Positions 6,860-23,610 of a stretch of DNA of 64,000 bases are shown here, one piece after another; within the stretch, counting starts at the first letter, position 1; every line of letters starts with the position of its first letter. Under the pieces are notes generated by a model that searched no databases, was not told the DNA's origin, and saw only the letters and a program-made list of their open reading frames with translations. A program made the translations under genes and the position numbers. This DNA is from an uncultured Arcobacteraceae bacterium (GTDB taxonomy: Bacteria > Campylobacterota > Campylobacteria > Campylobacterales > Arcobacteraceae). Where the stretch lies: assembly GCA_964022095.1 (NCBI GenBank), contig CAXHZO010000006.1:39485-103484 (forward strand). Direction: 5' to 3'.

Positions 6860-6936
6860 GCGTCTATGGCTCAACTGGATAGAGCTCCCGGTTTCGGCCC
6901 GGGTGGTTGTGGGTTCGAATCCTACTAGGCGTGCCA
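6860..6936 (+). tRNA. tRNA-Arg(TCG)
   Basis: Cloverleaf: acceptor GCGTCTA/TAGGCGT, D arm GCTC/GAGC, anticodon stem CCCGG/CCGGG with loop TT-TCG-GC, T arm GTGGG-TTCGAAT-CCTAC, encoded CCA. Confidence 0.97.
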
Positions 6937-7173
6937 CTTATTTATAATCCAATCTTTATTAAACATTTATAAAAAATAGCTTAACTGTAAAATAAATAAT
7001 TCTTATCATTAAATAACACATTAATATTATTATTAGGTAAAAAAACTTATTAATCCCCATTTTAAAGTATATTAAAAAGTATAAAATGATCTGCTAGTTG
7101 CTTTTTTAAGTAAAATAATCAAGTTATTAATTTAAATATAATTATGTATTAAGCTAATATTTATAATATTTTA

Positions 7174-7182
7174 TGCTATAAT
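7174..7182 (+). promoter_or_regulatory. extended -10 promoter for the type IV filament-like cluster
   Basis: TGcTATAAT about 40 bp upstream of ATG 7223, with AAGGA RBS in between. Confidence 0.6.
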
Positions 7183-7222
7183 AAATAAGCAAATAAATTC
7201 AAAATAGAGATAAAGGATGTAA

Positions 7223-7777
7223 ATGCCTTATATAGTGGCTTCAATTATAGCAGCAGTATCTGCTATGATAATACTCTTTACAAGATATGAAGCTGATGAT
7301 AGTGCAATTATGTCTCAAATTGAAAAGATGAAAACAATGCTTTCTATGGTAGATGGTTATGTTAATACATATATCGAATCAGGAGGAGCTTTAGCTGATA
7401 TTAATTTTCAAGTATTAGATGATGCTGGTATTTTGATGAACGTAGGGACTGGACAGAGTAATACAAGATTAAATCCAAGTGATGATTCTGGTACTATTGA
7501 AACAACTATGCGTTTACCAAATGATGATGTAATTTGGCATATAATTCCAAATAAAGCAGATACTAGCTCTTATAAGCTTTTAGTTAACATGAGTGGTGAT
7601 TCTTCTTTGATGAGTAAAGCTATATTCTCTGAAGGATTTGTAGGTAGAGAGTATTGTGAAAAAATGTTATTTGGAGAACTGCAAAGAACTCAAAATCAGT
7701 TTGATGGTACAGATGATTTTGAAGATGATTCAGGCTCAAATGACGATGGAATATTTGTTTGTGTTGTATATAAATAG
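7223..7777 (+). CDS. pilin-like protein, no class III leader
   Basis: N-terminal hydrophobic helix then an amphipathic helix ending in VNTYIES; late Cys pair (YCEK...FVCV); context next to secretin and ATPase. Confidence 0.55.
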   Translation: MPYIVASIIAAVSAMIILFTRYEADDSAIMSQIEKMKTMLSMVDGYVNTYIESGGALADINFQVLDDAGILMNVGTGQSNTRLNPSDDSGTIETTMRLPNDDVIWHIIPNKADTSSYKLLVNMSGDSSLMSKAIFSEGFVGREYCEKMLFGELQRTQNQFDGTDDFEDDSGSNDDGIFVCVVYK

Positions 7778-7788
7778 ATTTTCTTTGT

Positions 7789-7804
7789 TGTGATTTAAAT
7801 CACA
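7789..7804. promoter_or_regulatory. perfect CRP/FNR-family type palindrome
   Basis: TGTGA-TTTAAA-TCACA, a perfect 16-bp palindrome matching the TGTGA-N6-TCACA consensus. Confidence 0.6.
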
Positions 7805-7810
7805 TTTATG

Positions 7811-7826
7811 GGTAGGTAGGTAGGTA
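7811..7826 (+). repeat. (GGTA)4 tandem repeat
   Basis: GGTAGGTAGGTAGGTA in an otherwise AT-rich intergenic region. Confidence 0.85.
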
Positions 7827-7857
7827 TCAAAAAATTTAATATAAAAAGGGTCAAAAA

Positions 7858-8535
7858 ATGCCACAACTGATAGCAATGGTAATAGTAGTAGTTGGAGCTA
7901 TGATATATATGTTCCAAACATTTGGTGGAACTGGTGATAAACTTGAAGGTGTTGCACAAAAATCAAGTATAATTACAGAAATTAATAATATAAAAGATGG
8001 GTTAATATATGCATCAGAAGCAGAACAAATAGCACAAACTGCAAGTGCTGCAACTGATACATTTAACACATTATCTGCTTTAGGTGGTTTAAAGTATTTT
8101 GATGAGCAAATTAATGAGCAAGTTGTAGATAATGCAAATGCTACTGATTATCCTACAACTAATGATGATAATGCTTATTATGGTATTTCTTTCGGTGGCC
8201 AAAATCCTGATAATCAAGGTGGAGTAGTTTTAAAACTAGTTTCAATTCAAAATATGGTTCCTGGAATATTTGTTGATTTATCAAGTGGAAATTTAAAAGA
8301 TAATGCTCCATTTTTAGAAACACAAATAGCAAAAGACTTAGAGGTAATTGCATATATCGATAGAGGAGCACAAGATGAGACTGATGTTGGATCTACAGCT
8401 CAAGATACAACTAGCACAACTGGAATACTTACAAGAATTCCTGCCGATAAAGATGCAGCAACTGATGCACAGAGAACTGACGGTAAATTTATTGTTTACT
8501 TCAAAGATTTTGGGCCAGATAAAATAGTTAAATAA
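7858..8535 (+). CDS. candidate major pilin-like subunit, no class III leader
   Basis: MPQLIAMVIVVVGAMIYMFQTFGG hydrophobic N-terminus, amphipathic helix SIITEINNIKDGL, Gly/Thr/Ala-rich head; bracketed by regulatory elements. Confidence 0.6.
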   Translation: MPQLIAMVIVVVGAMIYMFQTFGGTGDKLEGVAQKSSIITEINNIKDGLIYASEAEQIAQTASAATDTFNTLSALGGLKYFDEQINEQVVDNANATDYPTTNDDNAYYGISFGGQNPDNQGGVVLKLVSIQNMVPGIFVDLSSGNLKDNAPFLETQIAKDLEVIAYIDRGAQDETDVGSTAQDTTSTTGILTRIPADKDAATDAQRTDGKFIVYFKDFGPDKIVK

Positions 8536-8561
8536 TATTTAGGCTTTCGCCTAAATATTAT
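8532..8561 (+). terminator. strong hairpin after the pilin-like gene
   Basis: ATAATATTTAGGC-tttc-GCCTAAATATTAT. Confidence 0.7.
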
Positions 8562-8577
8562 ATTCTTTATTTAAAAC

Positions 8578-8617
8578 AAAAACTAAGTGCTAAATATAGC
8601 ATTTAGTTTTTATTTTT
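8578..8617 (+). terminator. second hairpin with T tail inside the operon
   Basis: AAAAACTAAGTGCTA-aata-TAGCATTTAGTTTTT (one G-U pair), then ATTTTT. Confidence 0.6.
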
Positions 8618-8633
8618 ACGAAAGGTTTTATAA

Positions 8634-9359
8634 ATGTTCGCGGCAAATATATGGCTAACATCGGCACTTATTGTTACAGCTATATTCTCTGCATCAGCGA
8701 TGTATAAATCTTATAGTGACCTAAATGAAGCAAAGCAAATTCAAGAGCACTTTGAAATAATCACTGATATTAAAATACTACTTGCAAAACAATACAATAA
8801 AAATCCAAATGAAATTACAAGAGATGAAATAATAGCTTATCTACCAAAAGGTGGTAACTGGGATAAGGTTTTACTTTTAGATAGAAATAACGATAGTACA
8901 TTAAGTGAAGACGAACTTGTAAATGATGATGGACAAATAGAAATTGATGAAAATGAAAAAGTAAAACTTCTTGCATTAAAAGCTAAAATGAATAATTCTT
9001 TGGCAACTGCAAATATGAGTGCAACAGATGGAAAATATACCTTTGATATAGCACACAATAAAAGTATAAAGCAAAAAGATAAAACCATAGAAGATAGTTT
9101 AAATAAAGCAATCTACTATGCAATACAAGAAGCTATTTATGGCACGCAAACAGATTATACAACCTTATCAGCTGATATGGTAGATGATTTTATTCCTTTA
9201 TCAGATATGTATCATGATTTAAGTGATATAGGTTTAGTAGATGATGATGAAATAACAAAGAAAAAAATATATTTTAAAGCTTTATTAAAACAAAGATTAG
9301 AAAAGAGTCTTAATCCCCAAGAAGCAAAGCTTTATAAACTAATGAAAGATGAATTATGA
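8634..9359 (+). CDS. pilin-like/bitopic protein of the filament cluster
   Basis: Hydrophobic N-terminus, amphipathic helix, then EIIAYLPKG motif reminiscent of pilin heads. Confidence 0.45.
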   Translation: MFAANIWLTSALIVTAIFSASAMYKSYSDLNEAKQIQEHFEIITDIKILLAKQYNKNPNEITRDEIIAYLPKGGNWDKVLLLDRNNDSTLSEDELVNDDGQIEIDENEKVKLLALKAKMNNSLATANMSATDGKYTFDIAHNKSIKQKDKTIEDSLNKAIYYAIQEAIYGTQTDYTTLSADMVDDFIPLSDMYHDLSDIGLVDDDEITKKKIYFKALLKQRLEKSLNPQEAKLYKLMKDEL

Positions 9360-10084
9360 TTAGACTATTTTTAGGTTCTTTACTATTTATTTCAAGTTTA
9401 TTTGCTCTAGATACAACTTTAGATTTAACAAATTTTGAAGATAGACAAGCTGTAATTCAAGAAGTAAAAAAAATAGTTCTAAAAGAGGAGCAAGTTGCAA
9501 AATCATATGAAGAGTATATTTTAGAAAACTATAACACTCCAAGTATGCTAAATCTTTTAGATTCTAATTATTTAGGAACATCTTTTTTAACACAAATTGA
9601 TACAAACTATTTTAATAATATATCTATAAGTTCAACTTCAACACTAAGTTATGCTTTAAAAACACAATTTAAAAGTGATGCATATATAAAAAGTCTGTAT
9701 GAAAGTAATACTTTTAGAAAAAGAACATTTTATTCTAATAATAAAATAAGTTTTATTTTAAAAGATGATTTTGCTAAGCACTTAGTATATTTGATTCTAA
9801 ATCAAACAACTGGCTTTGCAGGTATTGTTGATTGTACAACAATTGGGAGTAAATACTGCAAAAAAGGCGAAGATATTTATATTTATGATGATAAAGATAG
9901 AACAAATAAATTAATGTATTACTACAAAGGCAACTTTAAAACAGGTCCTATCATTATAACTTCAGATAAAACTTTACAAACAACAAATGAAGAGTTCGAT
10001 TTTTTACCAAAAGGTGCAATTCTTTATGATGAACTTGGACTTAAGTATGTAAAAACATCAACTGGAATTGAGGATATACAATGA
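9356..10084 (+). CDS. secreted protein with pilin-head-like domain (paralog 1 of 4)
   Basis: Sec signal ending LFA. Shared motifs KEEQVAKSYEEYILEN...NYLG and LYESNTFRKRT. ATGA overlap with the previous gene. Confidence 0.65.
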   Translation: MIRLFLGSLLFISSLFALDTTLDLTNFEDRQAVIQEVKKIVLKEEQVAKSYEEYILENYNTPSMLNLLDSNYLGTSFLTQIDTNYFNNISISSTSTLSYALKTQFKSDAYIKSLYESNTFRKRTFYSNNKISFILKDDFAKHLVYLILNQTTGFAGIVDCTTIGSKYCKKGEDIYIYDDKDRTNKLMYYYKGNFKTGPIIITSDKTLQTTNEEFDFLPKGAILYDELGLKYVKTSTGIEDIQ

Positions 10085-10806
10085 AAATACTCATAGTACT
10101 TTTTTTATTTTCATCAATACTTTTTGCACAGCAGTCACAAATTATAAGACAGCAAAATGTTTTATTTATTCAAAAAATAATTGAAAGTGAAGAAAAAATA
10201 GCAAGAAATTTTGAGAAGTATCTTCTTGAAAACTTCACTATTCCAACAATGGCAGAATTAAAAGTAAATGAATATTTAGGTGAAAATTTCTCTTTAGATA
10301 ACAGATTTGGAAGCGATCTAGCTTTTAAAAATAGTTTAAATCTTCAATTAACTTATGCAATAACAAGTGAAAAAGATGCAAATGATTATAAAAACCTTTT
10401 ATATAATAGAGATTTATATAGAGAAAATACAGTTGTATATTTAGAAAAAAACAGTTCAAATGAAATTAATTATACAAACTCATACACTGAAATTTTACTT
10501 CAAAGCAATGAAGCTAAAACTATTTTAGAAATTTTAAAAAGTGGAAATTCTATAGAATCAAGTTGCACAGATACGCTAATAAATAAATACTGTAATCAAA
10601 ATCAAAGTGCTATAAGATGGTACAATAGTAGTTCACAATGGATTGAATACAACAAAGAAGGATTTGATAAAGCAAGTGTTACAATCTCTACTACTAGTTT
10701 ATTATTAGATAGTAGATTAAGTGTATTACCAATTGGTACGTATATTTATTTAAATAATGGCTCACAATATGTGAAATTAAAAGATAGTATTTTAAAGGTG
10801 GATTAA
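10081..10806 (+). CDS. secreted protein with pilin-head-like domain (paralog 2 of 4)
   Basis: Sec signal ending LFA. SEEKIARNFEKYLLEN...EYLGENFSLDNRFG and LYNRDLYRENT. Confidence 0.65.
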   Translation: MKILIVLFLFSSILFAQQSQIIRQQNVLFIQKIIESEEKIARNFEKYLLENFTIPTMAELKVNEYLGENFSLDNRFGSDLAFKNSLNLQLTYAITSEKDANDYKNLLYNRDLYRENTVVYLEKNSSNEINYTNSYTEILLQSNEAKTILEILKSGNSIESSCTDTLINKYCNQNQSAIRWYNSSSQWIEYNKEGFDKASVTISTTSLLLDSRLSVLPIGTYIYLNNGSQYVKLKDSILKVD

Positions 10807-13692
10807 ATCAAAAAGTTAATTTTTTTAATATCAGTTTTCTTCTTTAATATTGTTCTAGCAAACTCTCAAAATGTAGCGATGATGAATAGCATAAAAAGTG
10901 TTATTCAAAAAGAAGAGTTTATTGCCATTGCTTTAAATAAGTATATTATTCAAAATCTTGAAATACCAAAAAAAGAAAATATTGTTACAAGTAAATATGA
11001 ATTAGACTGGGATAAGATGTTAGTTGATGAATATTTAGGAACTAACTTTAATAAGTACAATCCTATTTTAAAAAGTGATATATCAATTGAGTTTGATAGT
11101 AATAATAATGCATTTATTAAAGGTGCAGTATCACAAGATAGCCAATATAATGAGAAGTACAACTATTTATATAATTTTTATATAAATAAAATATTTAGAG
11201 TAAATACAATTGCACCGGTTGATAATACTAAAGAAAACTTACTTAAAGGCTCTGAAGTTATCTATTCAGATTTTCAACAAGAGATTATAAACTTACTAAA
11301 TGCAAATAAAACAGTTCTTTATCCAAGTCAAAATTGTACAGCTGGAGAATATTTTTATGAAGTTAATGATAATAAGTTGATTTATAAATATTGTAAATCA
11401 TCATCTAGTAAAATACAAGTATATCAAGAAGCTCCGGTATATGTTGAAGATGAAGCAGATTTAAATTATATAAAAACAAAAATTGGTTCAAAAGGTTATG
11501 TAAAGAAAAATGGATTTTGGTATGAATATTATTATCAAGCTGATACAGCTACTCCATGGTTACCAACAGGAAGTGGAACTGTCTTAACTCAAAACTCAGA
11601 AGACACAACTATTGAAGATAGAGTTTTATCATATATTCCTGATTCAAAAGCAATAACAATAAAAGAAGCAGGTGGCTGCATGCTAGCAAATGGTGATATT
11701 TTTTGTTGGGGAGATAATAGTTATAAAAGAGCAGGTATAGAAAACTATGGACAAATAGATACATCACTAAGTCCTGATTATATAAATACACCTGTAATGT
11801 TAAAAGTTCAGATAAATGATACCCAAAGAGCAAATAAAAAATGGTATAACAATCCATATAGAATCAAATTTGAATCAATGTTTATGAATGGTAAAAATGT
11901 ATGTGGTACCTCTCCTATTTATGATATTATTGGTACAAATGAAAAGTATGGTGGTGATTTATACTGTAATGGTAGTGTAGATGCACTATATTATGAAAAT
12001 AATACGGGTTCAATCCAAACATCAATTTTAAGTAAGAATAGATATTTTGGTTGGGGTAAAGATGACTTTGAAGATAATGATCCAATACAGATAAAAGATG
12101 AAGAAGATGGTGGCCCAGATTCAAATGATAAGTTTATAAGAGATGAAATATATCTAAAAGATGTAGCTATGACTTCAGACACAATTGCTGTTTTATCTGA
12201 TGATGGTAAAATTTATACTTTAGGTAGAAATTATAATGGTACTTTGGGTCTTGGAAGTGATGATAAATTTATAAATAATTATGAACCAAAACAAGTTGAT
12301 GTAAATTCTGACGTATTTTTTGATCAGATTTTTGTACTAAGAGATATTGATACTTTTGGGGCAATTGATAATAATAAAAACTTTTGGATTTGGGGTGAAA
12401 GGGAAGATGGTTACTTAAATAAACCAACAAGATTAAATGATAGTGGTTTGCAATTTGATCCTGATAAAATTTTTGTAAATAGTAAAGAGTTTTTATTGCA
12501 AAGTTTATCTTCAAAAGTTTTTTATAGAACAGATGCTCAAAAAGATATAGTATCAATAAGTTCAAGTAATATTGCACAAACAGCAATTAGTGCCACATTA
12601 ATTGAAGAAAATGGTACTTGGAAATATTTATATGTAGATGAAGATTTAGATTTAAAAGGTTCATCATCACTTTTAGCATGTGGAAGTAACACTGATACTT
12701 CATGCAGCACTATAGAAAGTAGTTTATTTACTTTTGCACTAGATACATTAAATACTGATTCAAATTTTTTAAATGTATCAACATATAAACTTGATGCTAC
12801 AGTAGATGAAAGGTCTGAAGATTTTGAAGGATCAAGTACTAATGACTGGAAGGTAAATACATATAGTGATGATGCTTTTTCTACTTTAATTTCAAATGAT
12901 AATCCAACTTTATATAATCCAACTGAAAGTAGTTCTTCTGATGAAAAAGTAAGAGTTGATCCCACACAAATCTTAGGAAGATTTCAAATTGGAAATCAAT
13001 CAGTTGATAAAGTATATGATTTTGGAATTTCAAATGCAAATAGAAATATTGTTTTTGAATTTGATTTTTATGAAATAGATTCTTGGGATATGGAAAGGTT
13101 TAATGTAATACTAAATGGTGAAGTATATACAGATGATGGATTCATTCATGATGATCACCCTGACTTTGCAGATGGTAATGATACAGGTATTTATACTTTA
13201 AATTTAGGATCAATGTATGGAAGTAGTGAAGCGGCATCTAAAAATAATGATGAAAAATACCACTATAAGATAAAAGCTAAACTTGATAGTTTAGGTAAGC
13301 TAGATGTAAAACTAAGAGTTAGAAACTTGCAAAAAGGTGAATATGGCTATAACAAGTGGGCTTATGGTCAAACTTTAGGTGATGAGTCTTGGGGAATTGA
13401 TAATATTAATATAAAAATTAAAGAGATAAATAAACATTTTACCTGTGCTGTAACTGGATTAAATACAGATTCTCAGATGTATTGTTGGGGTGTTGTGGGA
13501 CGAAGTATACCTATTTTAAGTACTTCATTATATAATATGGGTAAAATAAGTAGTTTAAATAAATTATTTATTTCAACTAAAGAAGATGAAAGTAAACAAA
13601 TGTCTTTTGATCGTTATGATATAAATGGAAGTTTGTTTTTAAAGTTCCCTACATACATAGGTGGATTTGACTATCCGTTTTATTTTAAATAA
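10807..13692 (+). CDS. large secreted adhesin-like protein: pilin-head-like domain, RCC1-like repeats and an inserted beta-sandwich (paralog 3 of 4)
   Basis: Frame is open from ATC 10807 and encodes IKKLIFLISVFFFNIVLA (signal peptide); first ATG is at 10879. RCC1-like motifs GDIFCWGDN, GKIYTLGRNYNGTLG, QMYCWG. Confidence 0.7.
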   Translation: MKKLIFLISVFFFNIVLANSQNVAMMNSIKSVIQKEEFIAIALNKYIIQNLEIPKKENIVTSKYELDWDKMLVDEYLGTNFNKYNPILKSDISIEFDSNNNAFIKGAVSQDSQYNEKYNYLYNFYINKIFRVNTIAPVDNTKENLLKGSEVIYSDFQQEIINLLNANKTVLYPSQNCTAGEYFYEVNDNKLIYKYCKSSSSKIQVYQEAPVYVEDEADLNYIKTKIGSKGYVKKNGFWYEYYYQADTATPWLPTGSGTVLTQNSEDTTIEDRVLSYIPDSKAITIKEAGGCMLANGDIFCWGDNSYKRAGIENYGQIDTSLSPDYINTPVMLKVQINDTQRANKKWYNNPYRIKFESMFMNGKNVCGTSPIYDIIGTNEKYGGDLYCNGSVDALYYENNTGSIQTSILSKNRYFGWGKDDFEDNDPIQIKDEEDGGPDSNDKFIRDEIYLKDVAMTSDTIAVLSDDGKIYTLGRNYNGTLGLGSDDKFINNYEPKQVDVNSDVFFDQIFVLRDIDTFGAIDNNKNFWIWGEREDGYLNKPTRLNDSGLQFDPDKIFVNSKEFLLQSLSSKVFYRTDAQKDIVSISSSNIAQTAISATLIEENGTWKYLYVDEDLDLKGSSSLLACGSNTDTSCSTIESSLFTFALDTLNTDSNFLNVSTYKLDATVDERSEDFEGSSTNDWKVNTYSDDAFSTLISNDNPTLYNPTESSSSDEKVRVDPTQILGRFQIGNQSVDKVYDFGISNANRNIVFEFDFYEIDSWDMERFNVILNGEVYTDDGFIHDDHPDFADGNDTGIYTLNLGSMYGSSEAASKNNDEKYHYKIKAKLDSLGKLDVKLRVRNLQKGEYGYNKWAYGQTLGDESWGIDNINIKIKEINKHFTCAVTGLNTDSQMYCWGVVGRSIPILSTSLYNMGKISSLNKLFISTKEDESKQMSFDRYDINGSLFLKFPTYIGGFDYPFYFK

Positions 13693-13700
13693 GGAAAAAT

Positions 13701-15353
13701 ATGCATAAAGTATTAAACGTCACTCTTGTTATATCTATGGTTATTTCTTTTATAGGATGTAGCCCCAAAAGTTATCATAATGAAATGATTGATAATGCAA
13801 AGAGAAGTTTAGATAAAAAAGATTATGAGAACATTACAGAATCATATACAAAAGGTTTAGTAACTGAAGTTCCAAAACAAAAAGAGTATATATCAATATT
13901 AGAAGATAAATCTTTAGGAGATATTTTAAAAGAAATGGAACTTCTAGATAATAACTTTTATTTTCTAAAAAGTAGTGATATTCTTATTCCCAAAAGTAGA
14001 ATCAAAATTCATAGTATGAATGAATTAAATCAGTATTTAAATGCTGTTTTAGATAAAGAGCTATTTATTAAAAAAAGTGGGTCAATTTATCTTGTAAAGC
14101 TTTTAAATGTAAGTGAAACAAAAAAACTTTCTCTTGATAGAATTCCTTTTAAATTAGATGGTCAAATTTCAGTTGAAGAATTAATTAAATTAATAACTTC
14201 AGAATCTGGATATGAAGTATCAATTGGAAATTATATAAAAGATAGATTTGGTTTTCAAAATAGTATTGTAAATATTAGATCAAACAGTTTAAAAGATGCA
14301 TTGAACTCTTTAGCCTATGCAAAAAATGTTTATGTTGATGTTAATTATGACCAAGAGATGATAAATATTAGTAGATATAAAGATATGGTTGTTGAGTTAA
14401 ATATTCCACTACTAGATATAAAATCAACAAATGAAACATCAAGTCAAGAAACATCAGGTGAGAGTAGTATTAAAAATAGTTCACAAATTGTTTTATATGA
14501 TGAGCTAGATAAAATGTTAAAAAATATTATATCGACAGATATAATTTCTACTTATCATATTGATAAAGCTAGTGGATTAATATTCTTAAAATCAACAAGA
14601 AGTGTTGAAAATGCAGTTAGAACTGTAGTAAAAGCATATGAAGCAAGTTTTGCAAAAGAAGCAACTATAGAGTTTGAAAGAATAGAGCTTGCTTTAAATA
14701 AAAGTAGAAAATATGGAATTGCTTCAATTACTGATAATAGACAAGGAAATACTGATTCTGGAGTATTAAAATCTCTTACAAGTGAAGGGGCAATTAGTTT
14801 TGCAAGTGATAATGCAACTAGACTTCTTCAAGTAGCTGCAACTGCAAATAATGATATCGGTAAGGTTTTAAATTACAGTAAAAATGTTATTGTATTAAAA
14901 AATAATATTCCATCTGTTCAATCAATTAGTCAAAATACTGATTATATAGAAAAAATAGAAACAACAGTGACAGAAGGTGTTAGTACATCAGAAGCTACTG
15001 TTAACACTATAAAAGATGGAACTTCTGTAACTGCTATGGCAAAAATTTCTAGAGATAAGATTTTTTTAAATCTTACTCCAACAATTAAAAGATTAATTAG
15101 TATCTCTGAAGCAAAAGTTGGAGATTCAACAATTCAACTTCCAGAGTATAATGACCAAAGTTATAACATTTCAAGAGAAGTTAAACTTGGTGAAACATCT
15201 ATTGTAGGTTCTATTATTATACATGATGATGCAAAAGAGTATCAAGGTATTTTACCTTTAGAAGGTTTTGCGGTTGGTGGAACAGATTCTAAATCATATG
15301 TAAGAAGAGAGATTATTTATATAGTTACATTAAAGAATATTAAAGGCTTTTAA
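13701..15353 (+). CDS. lipoprotein secretin (BfpB/PilN/MshL-like)
   Basis: Lipobox FIGC. C-terminal secretin-like pattern IFLNLTPTI...IQLPE...EVKLGETSIVGS...RREIIYIVT. Confidence 0.75.
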   Translation: MHKVLNVTLVISMVISFIGCSPKSYHNEMIDNAKRSLDKKDYENITESYTKGLVTEVPKQKEYISILEDKSLGDILKEMELLDNNFYFLKSSDILIPKSRIKIHSMNELNQYLNAVLDKELFIKKSGSIYLVKLLNVSETKKLSLDRIPFKLDGQISVEELIKLITSESGYEVSIGNYIKDRFGFQNSIVNIRSNSLKDALNSLAYAKNVYVDVNYDQEMINISRYKDMVVELNIPLLDIKSTNETSSQETSGESSIKNSSQIVLYDELDKMLKNIISTDIISTYHIDKASGLIFLKSTRSVENAVRTVVKAYEASFAKEATIEFERIELALNKSRKYGIASITDNRQGNTDSGVLKSLTSEGAISFASDNATRLLQVAATANNDIGKVLNYSKNVIVLKNNIPSVQSISQNTDYIEKIETTVTEGVSTSEATVNTIKDGTSVTAMAKISRDKIFLNLTPTIKRLISISEAKVGDSTIQLPEYNDQSYNISREVKLGETSIVGSIIIHDDAKEYQGILPLEGFAVGGTDSKSYVRREIIYIVTLKNIKGF

Positions 15354-15355
15354 TA

Positions 15356-16372
15356 ATGAGTATGTTCTCTGATCCCTATGAGTCTTTTTTATTAGATTAT
15401 TTAATCACAAAATTAGAAAATGGTTCTAATACAAGAAGAGCTTTAATTTTATATGGTGAGCAAATAACAAAAGAAACAAAATTTAAACAAAGACTAAAAG
15501 GTGCAATCAGAGATATGGAGATTGGTAAGCACTCCCTTGAAGCAATCTTACATAAGCATAAATTTTTAAATGCATTTCAATATAGTTTAGTTGTTAATAG
15601 TACTAGTACTATTGATGGACTAAAACTAGTTCAATCTTTTAAAAAAGCTAACTCAAATTTATTAGCAAAAATGATCAATCCAATATTTGTTCCTCTTGGA
15701 ATTATAATTGGTACTTTTTATGGATTAATTTTATATTTAGGGATGTTAGAAAAAGAGGTGATTTCTTTAAAAAAATTAAACCCAGATGTTGAACAGTTTT
15801 TAGGAATACCTGGATACTTTACATATAATGTTGCTTATATTGGCTTAGGTTTATCCATATTTGTTACTGCGTTTATATTTTTTGGATATATATATTGTGA
15901 GAAGTATAGACCAGCATGGCTTTATGGGGTCTTTAAAACACAAGCTTTTTCAGATGGAAGATTTATGTTTAGAATCTTAAATGGTATGTTAAGTGCTGGT
16001 ATTTCATTTCATAAAACATCATTGATATTATCAAAAGATTATTTTAAAGTTGGATTAAGACCTTTTTTCCATGAACTATCAGATATTATTAGTAGAAATA
16101 AAAAGCTATTTCTAGTGTTTGAAAAATATAATTTTCCCACAATTATTACTGCTGATATTAAGCTTTCAGAATTAAGTAAAACTAGTTTTGCTGAAGTAAC
16201 AAAGGCTTTATATGAGACTTGTGATACAATGTATGAAAAAAATATCAATTATATGGTGTTACAGTGGAAGTTTTTCTTTTGGTTAATTGCTATGTTAATA
16301 ACAGTAATTATTGGTTCTGATGTGATTAATCTTGTGATTAGTACATTTACATTTAAAACTTTATATCAGTAG
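15356..16372 (+). CDS. PilC/GspF-like inner membrane platform protein
   Basis: Two cytoplasmic lobes (KLENGSNTRRAL; GMLSAGISFHKT) and three TM segments; lies between secretin and ATPase. Confidence 0.7.
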   Translation: MSMFSDPYESFLLDYLITKLENGSNTRRALILYGEQITKETKFKQRLKGAIRDMEIGKHSLEAILHKHKFLNAFQYSLVVNSTSTIDGLKLVQSFKKANSNLLAKMINPIFVPLGIIIGTFYGLILYLGMLEKEVISLKKLNPDVEQFLGIPGYFTYNVAYIGLGLSIFVTAFIFFGYIYCEKYRPAWLYGVFKTQAFSDGRFMFRILNGMLSAGISFHKTSLILSKDYFKVGLRPFFHELSDIISRNKKLFLVFEKYNFPTIITADIKLSELSKTSFAEVTKALYETCDTMYEKNINYMVLQWKFFFWLIAMLITVIIGSDVINLVISTFTFKTLYQ

Positions 16373-16387
16373 GCAGAAAAAGTATAT

Positions 16388-18076
16388 ATGTTAACAGATT
16401 TTTTTAAAAATAAAACATCTTTAAAATTGTTAAAAAAATTAAAAGGTAATAAAAAAACAATATCTCCTAAAAAAACTTTTAATACAAAAACATTAACACA
16501 AGTTTTTAATGAACAAAAAGAATCACTTCTTAATGTTTTCAAATCAAAAGAAGATGCAGATGCAGATCTTGGGGTATTAATTGAAGATGTAATTAAAAAT
16601 AAATTTGAACTTTCAGGTGGTTATGGAGATTTAATTGCTAATGAAGATAAGTATGAGGATTTTGTTAGAAGTTTAGGTTACGAATACTATGCAACATATA
16701 ATGAACTATCAAAATATTATCAAGATACATCCTTTCAATTAGATGAAAAGAAACTTGAGTTTTGTACAACTATGTATATTATTACTTTAGAAGATAAAAA
16801 AACTAAAAATAAGATCTTAGGTATAAGAGATGTTGTTAACTTAGACTTTGATGTATTAAGTAAGTTTTATTTTACAAAGATTGTTGTTTTAGGTGAGGGC
16901 GTATTATCTTCAGTATTTGGTGAAGATAGAGAGATTATTTTTGGCTCAAATGCTGATACAGATAATGATGATGAAATCAATAAGTATTTTGATAAGATGA
17001 TGGGGCAAGCTATTTTATTAGGAGCTTCAGATATTCACATCCAAAAAACAAATAGATATGCAACATTGTGGTTTAGAATTGATGGTGTAAAAGTTGATAT
17101 GGGTACTATGCCTATTGCAATTGCAAAAACATTAAAAAGAAGACTTGTAACTATGGCAGACCAAGAAGATTCAGATTATGAATCAATTAATGGTGTGATT
17201 AATTATGAGTATGGTAAAAAAACTATTAAGTTCAGACTTGGTTTGATTAACTCAAAACTAAACTTCTCTTTAGTTATGAGGATGATCGGTGGAAAAGGTG
17301 TTGTTTCTCATAAACTAGAGGGATTAAACTATCCAAAAGAGTCAGTTGATATTCTAAAAAACCTTACAAGATATGCCAATGGTATGATTCTTATTACGGG
17401 TCAAGTTGGTTCTGGTAAAACACACTTAATGTACGCACTTTTAAAACAATTAGCACAACAACAACAGTATGTAGTAACAATTGAAGATCCAGTTGAGTAT
17501 GTGGATGATGCCTTCTTCCAAATTGATCTTTCAGAGTTTGCAAGTGCAAGTGATGAGTTTAAGTATGGTTACCCAGAAGCAGTTGTTGATATCTTAAGAC
17601 AAGATTCAAATATCATCCTAATTGGGGAAACAAGAGAACCTCAAACTGCATCACAACTTGTAAATGCATCAAACTTAGGTCAGTTAGTATTTTCTACTAT
17701 GCATACCAACTCAGCTCCTGCAACAGTATCTAGAATGACAAGTTCACTTGGAATAAATGAAGGTGATATTGTCGATAACTTAAGAGGTATTGTATCTCAA
17801 AGACTTGTAAGAAAACTGTGTGGCTACTGTAAAGTAGAAGATGAAGAAGGTGGTTATAAAAAAGTTGGATGTGATGAGTGTAATGATTCAGGATTTAAAG
17901 ATAGGGTTCCTATTGCAGAAGTTGTAAGATTTAAAATTGGTCATGGTGGAGATTTTGAAAACCCTGCTGAGTATATGACAGTTGAGAAAGCATGTATGGC
18001 TCAATATCATGCTGGTCTTATTACAAAAGAAGATGCAATGGCAATTATTAGAGGGGAGGAAGTATGGTACGATTAG
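16388..18076 (+). CDS. PilB/GspE family assembly ATPase
   Basis: GASDIHI, FRIDG, Walker A GQVGSGKT, Asp box TIEDPVEY, Walker B LRQDSNIILIGETR, His box STMHTN, tetracysteine CGYC...CDEC. Confidence 0.95.
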   Translation: MLTDFFKNKTSLKLLKKLKGNKKTISPKKTFNTKTLTQVFNEQKESLLNVFKSKEDADADLGVLIEDVIKNKFELSGGYGDLIANEDKYEDFVRSLGYEYYATYNELSKYYQDTSFQLDEKKLEFCTTMYIITLEDKKTKNKILGIRDVVNLDFDVLSKFYFTKIVVLGEGVLSSVFGEDREIIFGSNADTDNDDEINKYFDKMMGQAILLGASDIHIQKTNRYATLWFRIDGVKVDMGTMPIAIAKTLKRRLVTMADQEDSDYESINGVINYEYGKKTIKFRLGLINSKLNFSLVMRMIGGKGVVSHKLEGLNYPKESVDILKNLTRYANGMILITGQVGSGKTHLMYALLKQLAQQQQYVVTIEDPVEYVDDAFFQIDLSEFASASDEFKYGYPEAVVDILRQDSNIILIGETREPQTASQLVNASNLGQLVFSTMHTNSAPATVSRMTSSLGINEGDIVDNLRGIVSQRLVRKLCGYCKVEDEEGGYKKVGCDECNDSGFKDRVPIAEVVRFKIGHGGDFENPAEYMTVEKACMAQYHAGLITKEDAMAIIRGEEVWYD

Positions 18077-18813
18077 TAATAACTGATTTTGCTACAAAAG
18101 AAGATAATGAATCATTTTATTTAAATGACGAATTTGATTCGCAATCTCAAATCTTTACATACGACTCCTTTAAAAAAAATAGTGTATATCTTTCTAAATA
18201 TGATGTTCACGATGATATATACTCTTTAAATTTGCTATCAAAGAAGCATCTAGATAAAAATCAATTCTTAATTCATATAGCTAATGGCGAGTTTATTATT
18301 TTATTTAATCACAAGACAGTTTATTCTGCAAAAATAAATCAAAACTTTATTACAGATGATATGATTAAATCAATTTTAATTACTAAACATATAGTAATGC
18401 TTTCAAGTGGTGGTTCTATTGATAAGCTATACTATGTAATTAATTCTAGATATAAAAGTGCCATTGAAAATATTTTAAAACAAAACACAAGAAATGAAAA
18501 AGGTCAAATTGTAGCTCAACCCCTTGGTGAAATTAAAGATTTAGTTAAACCTTTAGTTGAATTAGACAGTATGAAAGGCCATGTTTTAAAAAATACCTTT
18601 TCATTAATTTTTGTTGCAGGAATTCTATGGACGATGTTTTATGGATTAGATATTCTTAGTAACAAGTTTTTAGGAAAAGAATCATTAAGCAGTCTTACAC
18701 GAGAGTTAAAAGTTCAAAATAGATTAGTAAAAAGACAAGAAGTTTTATATAACAAAAGTATAAATGAGTATAAAAAACTAACTGAATGTATAACAACAGA
18801 AGGTACAAAATAA
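18064..18813 (+). CDS. bitopic alignment-complex-like protein (GspL/PilM-PilN-like, tentative)
   Basis: Cytoplasmic domain, one TM near residues 178-198, short coiled coil; position after the ATPase. Confidence 0.45.
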   Translation: MVRLVITDFATKEDNESFYLNDEFDSQSQIFTYDSFKKNSVYLSKYDVHDDIYSLNLLSKKHLDKNQFLIHIANGEFIILFNHKTVYSAKINQNFITDDMIKSILITKHIVMLSSGGSIDKLYYVINSRYKSAIENILKQNTRNEKGQIVAQPLGEIKDLVKPLVELDSMKGHVLKNTFSLIFVAGILWTMFYGLDILSNKFLGKESLSSLTRELKVQNRLVKRQEVLYNKSINEYKKLTECITTEGTK

Positions 18814-18814
18814 A

Positions 18815-19309
18815 ATGGTTAGTATCAGTAAAAAAACAGTATCTTTAGTAGTAAAAATAGGTTTTACGGTATTAGTTTTATATACTGTTGGATTTATGTT
18901 TTATAAAATTGGAAGTTACTATAAAACATATTATGAAAAACAAAAACTAATGCAAGAACTGCAAATTAAGAAAAATGAAACAAGTAGTTTAAAAAGACAA
19001 ATAAAAATCAATAAAGCTAGAATAGAAAGTGTTAAAAATAGTTATATATCAAAAGAGGAATTAGGTATAAAAATAAAAGATATTTTTCAAAGAATGTCTG
19101 TATTTGATTATGATTTAAGATATTTAGATGCAAAACAAATGTGTGTAGATAGATATATATTAGTAACTCAATTAACTTACCAAAGTGAAAATGGTAAAAC
19201 TGCAGGTGAAGGTATTTTATCATATATAGGAGAAGTTCAAAAAAGTGATAAAAACGAAAGTTTATATTTTGTAGATTATATAACAAAACCAAAAGGTAAT
19301 AGAAAATGA
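18815..19309 (+). CDS. bitopic coiled-coil protein (PilN/PilO/GspM-like, tentative)
   Basis: N-terminal TM, coiled coil, small alpha/beta C-terminal domain. Confidence 0.45.
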   Translation: MVSISKKTVSLVVKIGFTVLVLYTVGFMFYKIGSYYKTYYEKQKLMQELQIKKNETSSLKRQIKINKARIESVKNSYISKEELGIKIKDIFQRMSVFDYDLRYLDAKQMCVDRYILVTQLTYQSENGKTAGEGILSYIGEVQKSDKNESLYFVDYITKPKGNRK

Positions 19310-21498
19310 GACTAGTTGTTTTATTTATTTTAACTTTTAATATTTTAATTGCCACTGCTTTAGACCCATTAACTCTTGCAAAAGTAAAAAAAGCAGTACA
19401 AAAAGAAGAGTTAGTAGCTAAAGCATACAAAGAGTATTTATATGACAAGGGTGCAATTCCTTCAATAAATACTTTAATTTCCAATAATTATTTACCAAAG
19501 GGATTTAGTAGTATTAATCCTTTTGGTAAGCAAATGATAATTAATGTTAATATAATCGAAAATACAATTCCTGATAGTGTAAAAATAAATGCATATGATT
19601 ATTACTATACAAGTAAGTATAGAACAAATACTGTTGAACCCCTAAATTTAGATAGTGATGAAGTAAAAATCAAATTAAGTAAAAAAGAACAAATTATTTT
19701 TGAAAAAAGAAGTGAAATTGATAATGCTAGTCCCGTAAGTGAATATAAATTAGAAGATGGAGTTCTAAGTTGGTATGATTCAAATGGAAATTATATGTTC
19801 TCTTATGATGGAGATAAACTTATTGTAGATAGTACCGTAACAATTTTAGATGCAGCTTCTAACTTTGCTTCTAACTTTGATACTATGACTTCAGGTTTTA
19901 GGCATGCTGGTCAAACAATACTTCAAGAAAGTAATGGTGTAGTTGAAGATTATATAACTCTTGAGGAAGGTGCAGTTGCTTTAAATGAGTTTACAAAAAG
20001 TTATGGAGCTACTAAAATACAGTTTACAAGACGTGCTGGGGGTATGATTGTAAATGGAGATATTTATACTTGGGGAAATAATGAAAATAGAATTACAAGT
20101 ATAAAAAGTGATGATTTAACAGGAGATAGAAGTGATACAGCTCCTGTTATTAATGCTTTAGTAAGAGTAAAAGCTAATGTACCATCTCGCAGTGTAGATG
20201 GAGTAAATTTAGGAGATGTTACTTCTGTGAAATATTTTTCTTCTCCTATGCGACCAAGGTTTGTTGATTTTCATGCAACTGTTTATTCTAGTGTTTGTGG
20301 AGTTACAAGTAAAGGTGAGCTTTTTTGTGGTGGAACAACAGGAAAAGATCAATCTTTTGGAACAATGTTTACTCACCTAGATAAACAGGGATATAACGAT
20401 GAAATGTTATATCGAAGTACATTTTTTGATGGAGCAGCTGATTCACCAAAAGCTAAAAAAGTATTTTCAAATAACCAGATATGGCATATCTTAAGTGAAG
20501 AGGGAGATATTTATAGATGGGGTTATGATCATTCTGGTTTTGCTGGAACAGGAAACAAAAGATGGAACTATTATAGTAGAAATACTCATCTTGACCCAGA
20601 GATAATACCTGATACAGGTGCTAAATTTGATGATATAACTTATCTTTTAACTATTGGATACAGAAAAATTGGTGCATTATCAACTACTGGTGATATTTAT
20701 ATTTGGGGTGTTGAAACTAAAAACTCTAATAATTATGATTGTACTGAAACTTGGGAATATAAATATTATAATTTATGTGAACCAACTAGAGTAACAACAT
20801 CAAACTCTACAATGACTGAAGATCTTACTTTTAAAAGTATTAAAGGTGGTCTTGAGGCATTTATAGCTCAAGCAACAAATGGAAACTATTATAAAATATA
20901 TCATCCTTTAAGAAAGAAGATTCAAGTTGAGTCTTTAAATGAAAAGATTAAAACCTATTCTGAGTATAATGAAGCAGATGATAGTAGTATTTTATCAATA
21001 GATTTATCAAGTAAATTAAATGGTTCTACTTTAGAAATAAACAAAGGAATTGTTTGGGTAAATGGAAACAATGAATTAAAAGGTGATTATTTTACTGCTG
21101 ATAATAGTATAGATAGTTTATTTAAAGATGCAATATCTAAAATAAAATGGAAAAAAATAAAAGTAATTCAAGATGATAATGGTATGTGTGGAATTGATGT
21201 CAATAATCAAATGTATTGCTGGGGTGTAATGTCATATTATAGAGGAGATACTCCTAGTTCTGATGATATTGATAGAATGGGTAATACTTTTATGATACCT
21301 GTTTTTAATTCTAATTTATATGATTTAAAAAAAGATTTTTTAGTGGTTGAAGGTGGTCTTGATGGAAGTAGAGGTTATCTTACAAATATGACATCAGATG
21401 AATGGAAAACTACAAATAGTGATGGATATAGTGGAGCATTTTTTATGAAATACCCTACATATGTTGGTGGATTTAATTTTGAATTTGAGTTTAAATAA
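19306..21498 (+). CDS. large secreted adhesin-like protein: pilin-head-like domain and RCC1-like repeats (paralog 4 of 4)
   Basis: Signal peptide. KEELVAKAYKEYL...LISNNYLPKGFSSINPFGK. Repeats GDIYTWGNN, GDIYRWGY, GDIYIWGV, QMYCWG. C-terminus shared with the 10807-13692 protein. Confidence 0.7.
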   Translation: MRLVVLFILTFNILIATALDPLTLAKVKKAVQKEELVAKAYKEYLYDKGAIPSINTLISNNYLPKGFSSINPFGKQMIINVNIIENTIPDSVKINAYDYYYTSKYRTNTVEPLNLDSDEVKIKLSKKEQIIFEKRSEIDNASPVSEYKLEDGVLSWYDSNGNYMFSYDGDKLIVDSTVTILDAASNFASNFDTMTSGFRHAGQTILQESNGVVEDYITLEEGAVALNEFTKSYGATKIQFTRRAGGMIVNGDIYTWGNNENRITSIKSDDLTGDRSDTAPVINALVRVKANVPSRSVDGVNLGDVTSVKYFSSPMRPRFVDFHATVYSSVCGVTSKGELFCGGTTGKDQSFGTMFTHLDKQGYNDEMLYRSTFFDGAADSPKAKKVFSNNQIWHILSEEGDIYRWGYDHSGFAGTGNKRWNYYSRNTHLDPEIIPDTGAKFDDITYLLTIGYRKIGALSTTGDIYIWGVETKNSNNYDCTETWEYKYYNLCEPTRVTTSNSTMTEDLTFKSIKGGLEAFIAQATNGNYYKIYHPLRKKIQVESLNEKIKTYSEYNEADDSSILSIDLSSKLNGSTLEINKGIVWVNGNNELKGDYFTADNSIDSLFKDAISKIKWKKIKVIQDDNGMCGIDVNNQMYCWGVMSYYRGDTPSSDDIDRMGNTFMIPVFNSNLYDLKKDFLVVEGGLDGSRGYLTNMTSDEWKTTNSDGYSGAFFMKYPTYVGGFNFEFEFK

Positions 21499-21513: not shown

Positions 21514-22530
21514 ATGAAAAGAAGTATAGTTTTTATTAGTTTATTAATGATTTTAAATACAGGGATGTATGCAAATGAAATGGAAAATGTTGATAAACTA
21601 GATGTTTTAGATAAGCAATCAAAAGAGTTTTTTAAAGCAATTACAGGTTTAGAAAAAGATTATCTAGAAGAGCAAATAACTAGTATTGAAAGCAAAAAAA
21701 ATCAACCTGTACAAAATAATAATACCACACAAAATAGAGCAATTACTCCTTCTATTCCTGAAGTTACAAAAGAAGAAAAAGAAAAAAATATATTTAAACA
21801 TCAAAATGAAATAGCTAGACTTACAACTGATTTTACAAGAACAAAACAACTAAAAGATATTAGAATAAAAAGTATGTACTCTTTTAATGGAAAAAGTTAT
21901 GTAGTTTTAAAACTTGATAATAAAACAGCAAACACTACAGGTGAATTAAGCTCAAGTATCGAAGGACGATATCTAAGTGGAGATTATATTTTAGGTCATA
22001 AAATTACATCAGTAAATGTTAGAACAAAAAGCATAAAACTATATAAAAAACTTGATAAAGAGTATGGATACAATATATATTTAAGTAATTATGGTATTAG
22101 TGTTAGTGATTTAATTAAGTATGAAATTGATGAAAAAAAACAGAAGAAAAGTAGTAAAACTGTACAAAGAGAAGAGAATAAAGTAAAAAATGCTTTTGCT
22201 AATTTAGCTGAATCAAGTGTTGAGGTAAATACAAATGAAACTTTAAATATACAAAATTTATCAATGCAAAAAGATTTAGTTGATAAGTGTTTATATACAG
22301 TAAAAGTTTCAAATCTAAATGTTAGAAATGCAACACAATTAGATGCTAGAATATTAAGAATATTAAGAATTGATGATCAATTTACAATTGTACAAAAAAG
22401 TGGCCAGTGGGTTGAGCTTGATACAATATATAAGAAAAAATCAGGTGATGTAATGCCAGTAGAAAATAAAAGTAACTGGGTAAATATAACAACTCAAAAC
22501 GTAAAAGCAACTAATGAAAGTTGTATATAG
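21514..22530 (+). CDS. secreted PilP-like protein with C-terminal SH3b domain
   Basis: Signal peptide. Beta domain IKSMYSFNGKSYVVL...LSGDYILGHKITSV resembles PilP/HR domains. LNVRNA...RILRIL...SGQWV is SH3b-like. Confidence 0.55.
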   Translation: MKRSIVFISLLMILNTGMYANEMENVDKLDVLDKQSKEFFKAITGLEKDYLEEQITSIESKKNQPVQNNNTTQNRAITPSIPEVTKEEKEKNIFKHQNEIARLTTDFTRTKQLKDIRIKSMYSFNGKSYVVLKLDNKTANTTGELSSSIEGRYLSGDYILGHKITSVNVRTKSIKLYKKLDKEYGYNIYLSNYGISVSDLIKYEIDEKKQKKSSKTVQREENKVKNAFANLAESSVEVNTNETLNIQNLSMQKDLVDKCLYTVKVSNLNVRNATQLDARILRILRIDDQFTIVQKSGQWVELDTIYKKKSGDVMPVENKSNWVNITTQNVKATNESCI

Positions 22531-22539
22531 GATAATATT

Positions 22540-23610
22540 TTGGAATATATAAATAGTTGTAAAGAGGAAATATCATTACGTTTAAATAAAATAGAACAAG
22601 AAATAGTTCCTTTAATAAATGATTACGAAACATTTTTTAATATTGAAAAAGTTTTCTCAAGTGAAAATGGTGGGAAAACTAGATTAAATAGACAACTATT
22701 TAATGAAAATCATGAGTCTATTGTTGAAAAAATAGTACAAATAAATGATATTTTTGATGATGCATTAGATATTATAAAATCAAATATTCAATCAATATTA
22801 GGTGAATTTAAAGAGTTTAATAAAGTAGATTTAATTAATTTAATATTTGATGACTCAAACTTTTTAGAGATATTAGAATTAGACTTAAATAATCAAGTTG
22901 TAACAAAAGCAAAAAGAAAGCAAGTTGTAAATGAAATAGGAGCTTTATTAGCTTTAAAAAATAGAATTTTTAATTTGAAATATTATTTAAGTATGTTTGA
23001 TACAAGTATTTTTGATAAACTATTAAATAAGTTAGGTGTTGAAGACTTGATAAATAGCTCTGTGATATTTGAAATTATTGATTCATATGGCTTACAGTTT
23101 GATGAATTAACAAAATTTAAAGAAGAGCTAAAAACACTTCAACCAATTGAGGAAAAAGTAATTAGTTTTCAATTTTTAAACTCTATTTTAGAACTACATA
23201 AAAGAAGAAGTGAAAACTTTATTTATGCAAATACTAGATATAAAATTACCATTGATTATAACAATGAATTAGAATTAAGAAAAGCTATTTTAGTAAATAA
23301 AGCTTATTTAGAAAATATCATTTCTTATTTTATTGAACAGTCTTGTATGGATTTAGTAAAACAAGAGTTAAAAAAAGGAAAAATCCAGAAGTTTATTGAT
23401 ATTTCTATTCAAAAGATTAAAGGGAAATATATTTTAACTGTAAAAAACAATGGATTTGAAGTTAAGAATATTTATAATCTTTTTGTTTCTGATGTTGATA
23501 ATAAATATATATTAGAATCTAAAAACTTAGCAGATTCTATGAATGGAAATATTGAAATATATCCAATACCTGGTGAAGGAATGGTTTACTCTTTTATTTT
23601 TAAACCATAA
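22540..23610 (+). CDS. soluble protein with degenerate HATPase_c-like C-terminus
   Basis: LTVKNNG and SMNGNIEIYPIPGEGMVYSF resemble G1 and G3 boxes; N box, F/G2 box and H box are not recognisable. Confidence 0.55.
   Translation: MEYINSCKEEISLRLNKIEQEIVPLINDYETFFNIEKVFSSENGGKTRLNRQLFNENHESIVEKIVQINDIFDDALDIIKSNIQSILGEFKEFNKVDLINLIFDDSNFLEILELDLNNQVVTKAKRKQVVNEIGALLALKNRIFNLKYYLSMFDTSIFDKLLNKLGVEDLINSSVIFEIIDSYGLQFDELTKFKEELKTLQPIEEKVISFQFLNSILELHKRRSENFIYANTRYKITIDYNNELELRKAILVNKAYLENIISYFIEQSCMDLVKQELKKGKIQKFIDISIQKIKGKYILTVKNNGFEVKNIYNLFVSDVDNKYILESKNLADSMNGNIEIYPIPGEGMVYSFIFKP

Follow-up and report, generated by a model that had tools for sequence, protein, structure and literature searches.

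The window analysed here is a stretch of 64,000 nucleotides (nt) from an uncultured Arcobacteraceae bacterium (assembly GCA_964022095.1, contig CAXHZO010000006.1, positions 39,485 to 103,484 of the forward strand). Downstream of a ubiA-family gene and a tRNA-Arg gene it carries a cluster of 14 same-strand genes between positions 7223 and 23610 (Table 1), in DNA that is AT-rich around the site (G+C content 0.26-0.30). The first three genes, here termed P1, P2 and P3, encode proteins that begin directly with a hydrophobic segment, and the remainder of the cluster encodes proteins with Sec-type signal peptides (P4, P5, P6 and P12), a secretin-like protein, a platform protein, an assembly ATPase and the proteins g249, g164, g338 and g356. 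Type IV filaments, which include pili, type II secretion systems, competence pili and archaella, are defined by a class III signal peptide and its peptidase. We found that the leaderless starts of P1, P2 and P3 are real and conserved and not a matter of chance, that synteny and co-occurrence link these genes to the machinery of a type IV filament, and that the predicted folds of P1 and P2 resemble those of pilins.

Table 1. Genes and other features at the P1-P3 locus (positions are those of the window; aa, amino acids).
Feature	Positions	Strand	Length (aa)	Description
tRNA-Arg (TCG)	6860..6936	+		Called by ARAGORN; upstream border of the cluster, followed by a long AT-rich spacer
P1	7223..7777	+	184	Leaderless pilin-like protein; paralogue of P2; candidate minor or initiating subunit
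P2	7858..8535	+	225	Leaderless pilin-like protein; candidate major subunit
Two terminator-like hairpins with T-runs	8532..8611	+		Directly 3′ of P2; window z -6.5
P3	8634..9359	+	241	Leaderless hydrophobic N-terminus; not in the minimal form of the cluster
P4	9356..10084	+	242	Sec-type signal peptide; paralogue of P5 (hhalign 99.9%); no Pfam family
P5	10081..10806	+	241	Sec-type signal peptide
P6	10807..13692	+	937 (from ATG 10879)	RCC1-repeat protein; Pfam RCC1 7.6e-08
Secretin-like protein	13701..15353	+	550	Lipobox-like FIGC near the N-terminus
Platform protein	15356..16372	+	338	GspF/PilC-type, divergent; three hydrophobic segments
Assembly ATPase	16388..18076	+	562	GspE/PilB-type; Pfam T2SSE 3.1e-64
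g249	18064..18813	+		Membrane segment near residue 180 after a cytoplasmic-looking part
g164	18815..19309	+		N-terminal membrane helix, then a coiled-coil-like stretch
P12	19306..21498	+	730	RCC1-like; Sec-type signal peptide; Pfam PF25390 2e-11, below cut-off
g338	21514..22530	+		Secreted-looking; in the full and the minimal cluster; weak SH3_3 match only
g356	22540..23610	+		Last syntenic gene of the full cluster; no Pfam family

The original prediction, made from the letters of the window, had described P1, P2 and P3 as pilin-like proteins that start at well-placed ribosome-binding sites with no leader, no Gly-1 and no Glu5, and their coordinates, hydrophobic N-termini and AAGG-type starts were confirmed. 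Each of the three ATG codons is preceded, 6-8 nt to its 5′ side, by an AAGG-type Shine-Dalgarno sequence. For P1 (ATG 7223) this is AAAGGA at 7212-7217, and a TAA at 7220-7222 lies immediately 5′ of the start. For P2 (ATG 7858) an AAGGG ends 8 nt upstream and an in-frame TAA is found at 7837-7839, six codons upstream, while for P3 (ATG 8634) an AAAGG ends 8 nt upstream and a TAA at 8631-8633 directly precedes the start. With stops only 0-6 codons upstream in frame, an in-frame leader is impossible for any of the three genes in the window.

To see how the starts are kept in relatives, we ran tblastn at 30 loci in 28 genomes of the Arcobacter family. For P2, all 30 loci have an ATG aligned to residue 1; an in-frame stop precedes it by 1-18 codons, and the stretch between stop and start is free of any Met in every one of them. 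In 12 distinct places this stop lies at most 5 codons upstream, which is less than the shortest leader (6 aa) given in the available part of a review of type IV pilins (PMC4471445). The N-terminus of P1 was matched in 27 of the 30 loci (24 with ATG, 3 with TTG) with a stop 0-25 codons upstream, the exceptions being L003 and L025, where no match was found, and L030, which is unusable at the edge of its locus. By the same criterion P3 has a leaderless start in 25 of the 30 loci. Among 22 aligned P3 orthologues, 16 have Met at the conserved place and the other 6 are without ATG there; in the sole one of these six that was checked (L011), a TTG stands 6 nt after a GGGAG, and an unconserved in-frame ATG is present 13 codons further up, without a Shine-Dalgarno sequence and opening an extension that is hydrophobic.

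Wider searches gave the same picture. A P2 profile run against 1.84 billion representative sequences matched 41 proteins at E <= 0.001, none of them a canonical pilin, and all 34 matches that reach P2 position 1 begin at their own residue 1. A collection of 5.8 billion proteins contains 222 homologues of P1 and 481 of P2, the named ones being "hypothetical" proteins labelled Arcobacter or Aliarcobacter, and in the alignments (92 sequences for P1, 112 for P2) the start Met is shared. The claim that no leader is encoded upstream therefore held in the homologues, both in the 30 loci for P2 and in the 34 profile matches.

We next consider the segment with which the proteins begin. The hydrophobic tract covers residues 2-22 in P2, 2-20 in P1 and 2-22 in P3, and the 21 residues of the P2 tract equal the length given for the mature N-terminus of pilins, about 21 mainly hydrophobic residues, in the same part of the review (PMC4471445). 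None of the first 22 residues of P1, P2 or P3 is acidic, so that Glu5 is absent. In P2, Gln3 and Ala6 are invariant and residue 2 is Pro in every case; glycines are found at positions 13, 23, 24 and 26, the tract ending at Gly23-Gly24 and Gly-Thr-Gly occupying 24-26. The 112 P2 sequences have an overall identity of about 50%; invariant positions number 22 among the first 28 residues and 28 among the remaining 197, and the head is variable. This pattern of conservation fits a filament core and not a signal peptide, and because of it P2 looks like the major subunit. P1 and P2 are paralogues (hhalign 95.6%, E 1.3e-8, 134 columns), and P1 contains two invariant cysteines, C145 and C180.

The original prediction had further described each protein as continuing into a long amphipathic helix and a globular domain, with the lollipop pilin fold as the thing to look for in predicted structures, and predicted models bear out the helix and globular domain for P1 and P2. 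The AlphaFold model of P2 (predicted local distance difference test score (pLDDT) 91.5, predicted template modelling score (pTM) 0.84) has helices at residues 2-22 and 25-54 followed by a mixed alpha/beta head, and the AlphaFold2 model of P1 (pLDDT 78.8, pTM 0.68) has a single helix at 2-52 and an alpha/beta head. The ESM Atlas model of P3 is poor (pLDDT 0.46), and an ESM Atlas search with P3 returned no usable matches. In a structural search independent of Foldseek, in which the models were compared with 48,161 representative chains and 50 rows were kept for each, the best match of P2 was the type IVb pilin CofA (Z 7.7, root-mean-square deviation 4.5, 158 residues aligned, model residues 3-218 on chain residues 1-208), and TcpA scored Z 7.3 with 155 residues aligned; type IV pilins and pseudopilins make up all of the top 10 rows and 28 of the 50. 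P1 scored Z 7.4 against CofA and Z 6.8 against TcpA, with pilins in 10 of the top 12 rows and 23 of the 50. The alignments run from model residue 2-3 onto residue 1 of the mature pilin and extend near full length. The search carries its own caution that best Z scores of 7-8 are typical of models without a clear Foldseek match, and the fold argument accordingly draws on enrichment and full-length alignment and not on the score alone. Within these bounds, the models of P1 and P2 resemble lollipop pilins, in which an N-terminal helix of about 50 residues packs on a beta-sheet head. A predicted complex of four P2 copies (alignment A4) scored 0.00, which is evidence neither way.

P1 and P2 keep company with the machine genes in relatives. 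Seven long loci, from 6 genera, share the full gene order, and a minimal form, found in 2 loci from as many genomes, consists of P1, P2, the secretin, the platform protein, the ATPase, g249, g164 and g338 only. g249 is syntenic in 9 of 10 long loci. In one divergent genome (G014) the cluster is rearranged: one side holds P1-P2 together with a third, likewise leaderless gene and two RCC1 genes, and the other holds the ATPase and platform genes, 2-5 kilobases (kb) from P1-P2. In a sample of 151 genomes of the family, 28 have P2 and 27 have the platform gene; the two sets are identical bar one genome (85% complete, 380 contigs). In a sample taken across the phylum, the P2 profile matched in 6 of 23 genomes of this family, and the 377 genomes of the other 13 families gave one marginal match (E 9.9e-4) inside a 678-aa frame.

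The cluster is patchy within the family (27-28 of 151 genomes, 10 of 22 genera) and begins after ubiA and the tRNA-Arg gene (6860-7222); ubiA adjoins the cluster in L032 and L038 too. Patchiness and position together suggest an island subject to gain or loss; the cluster showed no integrase. One genome (G019; L027/L030, contig C235) carries two tandem P2 paralogues after P1 and a third on another contig, a kind of variation often seen for exposed major subunits. The two genomes with the minimal cluster have an extra divergent P1 paralogue just past g338 (L040, 9260-9775 on the minus strand; L041, 10400-10921). In another locus (L037 of G064, 8587-10919) the platform gene is split, with residues 1-72 and 61-338 about 1.3 kb apart, which looks like an insertion, and the system there may be inactive.

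Sequencing data were available as the contigs of four runs, which cover small shares of the stretch and from which no expression level or transcript ends can be derived. Parts of P1 and the P1-P2 junction are matched at 95-99% likeness by RNA-library contigs, a sign only that these pieces of close relatives are present in such libraries; for the middle, variable part of P2 (about 7972-8457) the four runs gave no cover at 90% likeness, which proves nothing. In a run of unknown kind (X4), one contig stops at 7188, which is 35 nt short of the P1 ATG, and there carries 11 loose letters, GAGTACATGGG, similar to the end of a template-switch oligo of the kind used for cDNA; if they are that, an mRNA 5′ end at 7188 is weakly hinted at by this one contig, from a relative 97-98% alike.

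Next we examined where a prepilin peptidase could come from. Neither a canonical N_methyl-type prepilin nor a prepilin peptidase is encoded in the cluster, and the original prediction had offered subunits made in mature form as an explanation for the missing peptidase. That part of the argument proved weak. The genome search for an A24 peptidase, which had been proposed as a check, returned a single bifunctional gene (A24_N_bact 1.7e-33 plus Peptidase_A24) on another contig, between housekeeping genes that are uppS-like (undecaprenyl-diphosphate-synthase-like) and lptF/G-like. The same gene is present in 149 of the 151 family genomes, with or without the cluster, and its distribution is therefore uninformative on peptidase independence. 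Canonical substrates are present as well: there are 7 N_methyl matches genome-wide, on four other contigs, and the prepilins inspected begin in the form MKK(A/G/S)F..E, a short leader being followed by Phe and then by Glu at mature position 5. Likely users of the A24 peptidase are Cts-type competence genes (the Cts system is described in the available part of PMC8308473). The argument for peptidase independence is that P1-P3 offer no leader or Gly-1 site to cut.

Our favoured interpretation, to which we give a little more credence than to its opposite, is that P1, P2 and perhaps P3 are leaderless subunits of a divergent type IVb-like filament machine that is restricted to part of the Arcobacter family. 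The bolder claim that this is a naturally occurring type IV filament made of pilins that are mature as synthesised, with no leader, no prepilin peptidase step and no Glu5, we put forward tentatively, as falling somewhat short of an even chance. Membrane topology, polymerisation, peptidase independence and the roles of individual genes are what we infer under this interpretation. To our knowledge, all known type IV pilins need the leader-cutting step. According to the available part of the review, their leader is a hydrophilic stretch of 6-26 aa that ends in Gly and is cut by the prepilin peptidase (PMC4471445).

We propose that the subunits would insert in the inner membrane with the N-terminus at the cytoplasmic face and the head in the periplasm, and so would already be in the state that ordinary pilins reach after prepilin-peptidase cleavage. 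That the head is probably outside is suggested by the net acidic residues after the tract and by the conserved Cys pair of P1. The ATPase, the small platform protein and two bitopic partners would then lift the subunits out of the membrane, and the invariant N-terminal helices would stack into a fibre that exits through the secretin, with P2 as the putative major subunit and P1 as a minor or initiating one. The Sec-exported proteins P4, P5, P6 and P12, two of which have RCC1 propellers, may be bound at the tip, carried or secreted by the fibre. Because Glu5 is missing, the N-terminal amine has no partner for its usual charge pairing. Methionine aminopeptidase takes off Met when a small residue follows; speculatively, removal of the initiator Met would make Pro2 the N-terminus of P2, and this residue is a secondary amine, as is the N-methylated residue 1 of classical pilins.

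Among known systems, the closest likeness is to the type IVb pili (CofA of CFA-III and TcpA of TCP; PDB 9iuf and 8uhf), whose pilins are the best structural matches of the P1 and P2 models over near full length. The sizes of P1 and P2 (about 180-225 aa) agree with this, as do four features typical of type IVb systems, namely a Cys pair near the C-terminus (in P1), a small putative platform protein, a lipobox-like signal in the secretin-like protein and Sec-exported proteins in the cluster. Type IVb prepilins differ in that they have leaders ending in Gly and Glu5 and are encoded in clusters that usually contain a peptidase, whereas the P1-P3 cluster has none of these, and no sequence similarity to type IVb pilins was detectable. 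Type II secretion systems likewise combine pilin-like subunits (GspG-K) with a GspE-type ATPase, a GspF-type platform and a secretin, the last two of which have putative counterparts in the cluster, and the Sec-exported neighbours could be cargo; their pseudopilins, however, have class III signal peptides and rank below the type IVb pilins in the structural lists (Z 3.5-4.4). The Campylobacter-type Cts competence system is a second type IV filament-like system of the same genomes with a GspE-like ATPase and a secretin (available part of PMC8308473). The ATPase paralogues are 31-35% identical, but the Cts system has canonical short-leader pseudopilins and is, like A24, near-universal in the family, in contrast to the 27-28 of 151 genomes that carry the P1-P3 cluster.

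Several observations weigh against the favoured interpretation. Glu5 is absent, and bacterial pilins mutated at Glu5 form no homopolymers according to the available part of the review (PMC4471445). The same part of the review (PMC4471445) states that archaeal type IV pilins and archaellins often lack Glu5 and are unmethylated at the N-terminus. A type IV filament can thus be built without the Glu5 contact; these archaeal proteins differ in belonging to another domain of life and in having a leader that is still cut by a dedicated peptidase. P1-P3 had no match in Pfam or NCBIfam, and profile and sequence searches of the PDB (alignments A2 and A3) reached chance level only (E 0.95 and 1.8). When the profiles of P1, P2, P3 and P4 were compared with six canonical prepilins of their own genome, hhalign gave probabilities of 0.4-1.7%. 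The structural Z scores are middling, and Foldseek against the PDB gave no match at E <= 0.001 for the P1 or the P2 model, the single pilin entry near the top for P2 being an MBP-PilA1 fusion at rank 2 with E 1.2. As for P3, hhalign detected no relation to P1, P2, P4 or P5 (<=0.5%), a Pfam search of 14 P3, 7 P4 and 7 P5 orthologues gave 0 of 28 pilin-related matches with a sub-threshold DUF7716 as the sole match, and what makes it appear pilin-like is only the N-terminal pattern of its first 80 or so residues. Moreover, the genome has canonical prepilins and an A24 peptidase that the machine could in principle use, and the filament itself is a prediction from sequences and models.

These points invite other explanations. 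The leaderless subunits might form a short periplasmic pseudopilus in a type II secretion-like machine with P4, P5, P6 and P12 as its cargo, which would agree with the Sec-type signal peptides and common N-terminal domain of these proteins and with an ATPase that scores equally well against GspE and PilB; we also count on this side that type IVb systems secrete Sec-exported proteins too. We nevertheless find a pseudopilus unlikely, for P1, P2 and the machine are retained in a minimal cluster that is without P3-P6 and P12, it is type IVb pilins of long pili, not GspG, that give the best structural matches, and the variable head and tandem copies of P2 fit an exposed fibre. A decidedly unlikely explanation, in our judgement, is that P1-P3 are non-polymerising bitopic parts of the machine that happen to be pilin-shaped, any fibre being made from canonical prepilins that are encoded elsewhere and cut by A24. 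The lack of Glu5, the 7 N_methyl matches and bifunctional A24 in the genome and the modest structural scores speak for it. It sits poorly, however, with an A24 gene whose distribution (149 of 151 genomes) tracks something other than the cluster, with the lack of a prepilin gene in or beside the cluster in 10 long loci, with g249 and g164 already having the topology of the usual bitopic partners, and with a P2 membrane helix that is near-invariant beyond the need of an anchor.

The remaining alternatives concern the N-terminus itself. We regard as very improbable that it is an unusual Sec signal without a charged n-region, cut by signal peptidase I (in P2 near 24-26) to free soluble periplasmic or secreted proteins. 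The Gly-Thr-Gly of P2 right after the tract and the Sec signals of neighbouring genes speak for such a cut, whereas signal peptides drift and 22 of the first 28 P2 residues are invariant, the tract is 19-21 residues long with no basic n-region, P1 is without a small-residue site after it, and the models extend the helix to residue ~52. The idea that the starts are mis-set and that a class III leader is encoded upstream is effectively refuted: its one foothold is the in-frame ATG 13 codons upstream in the L011 orthologue of P3, an unconserved hydrophobic extension without a Shine-Dalgarno sequence, against which stand the in-frame stops, found 0-6 codons before the three starts in the window and 1-18 codons before the P2 start in each of the 30 loci, where no intervening codon encodes Met, and Shine-Dalgarno sequences placed for the conserved start.

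Keyword searches of open-access full text turned up no earlier account of leaderless pilins or of the cluster. If the favoured interpretation is true, the leader-and-cleavage step, taken as a hallmark of the superfamily, would be a dispensable control device and not a mechanical need. With a conserved system of pilin-shaped proteins without that signal, the purposes of the leader, of the N-terminal methyl group and of Glu5 could be tested, as could the way in which a leaderless subunit is oriented in the membrane and what prevents its premature assembly. Genome screens based on motifs (N_methyl, PilD) would then miss whole systems. The family includes animal- and human-associated as well as marine species, and an unrecognised adhesion or secretion organelle would be of practical interest.

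The machine genes of the cluster are divergent to different degrees. The ATPase matches NCBIfam TfpB, PilB and GspE at about 1e-56 to 1e-58, all below the cut-offs of these families, and in the PDB matches GspE at 1.2e-42 and PilB at 6.9e-40. For the platform protein, the Pfam T2SSF match (E 0.001, 19.4 bits) is below the cut-off of 25.2, and the N-domain of PilC was matched at E 0.29. The secretin-like protein matches NCBIfam MshL at 1.1e-12 with 47.6 bits, far below the cut-off of 250, and had no match in Pfam (Secretin included) or to PDB sequences. g249 is a possible GspL/PilM-N-like partner and g164 a possible GspM/PilO-like one, as judged from their membrane segments; neither matched a family or a PDB sequence.

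Of 7 relatives whose spacer between P2 and P3 was folded, 6 have a strong hairpin there (z -3.2 to -5.4), and that of L034 is weak (z -1.7). We count these hairpins, like the tandem P2 copies, in favour of the filament interpretation. For P5, the ESM Atlas gave sub-threshold leads only, to Shufflon_N/N_methyl clusters (0.83 and 0.81). The N-terminal region of P6 is related to P12 and P5. Upstream of its ATG (10879), an open, signal-peptide-like stretch extends in frame for 24 codons back to an ATC at 10807, right after the P5 stop, and the L035 orthologue of P6 has an ATG-encoded Met at the place of this ATC; P6 in the window may have a non-canonical start codon, or it may be coupled to P5. 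Finally, P6 and P12 share at their ends (13600-13692 and 21400-21498) a conserved C-terminal stretch of about 80-110 residues that is 29-32% identical and has similar aromatic-rich last residues, which could be a sorting or docking signal.

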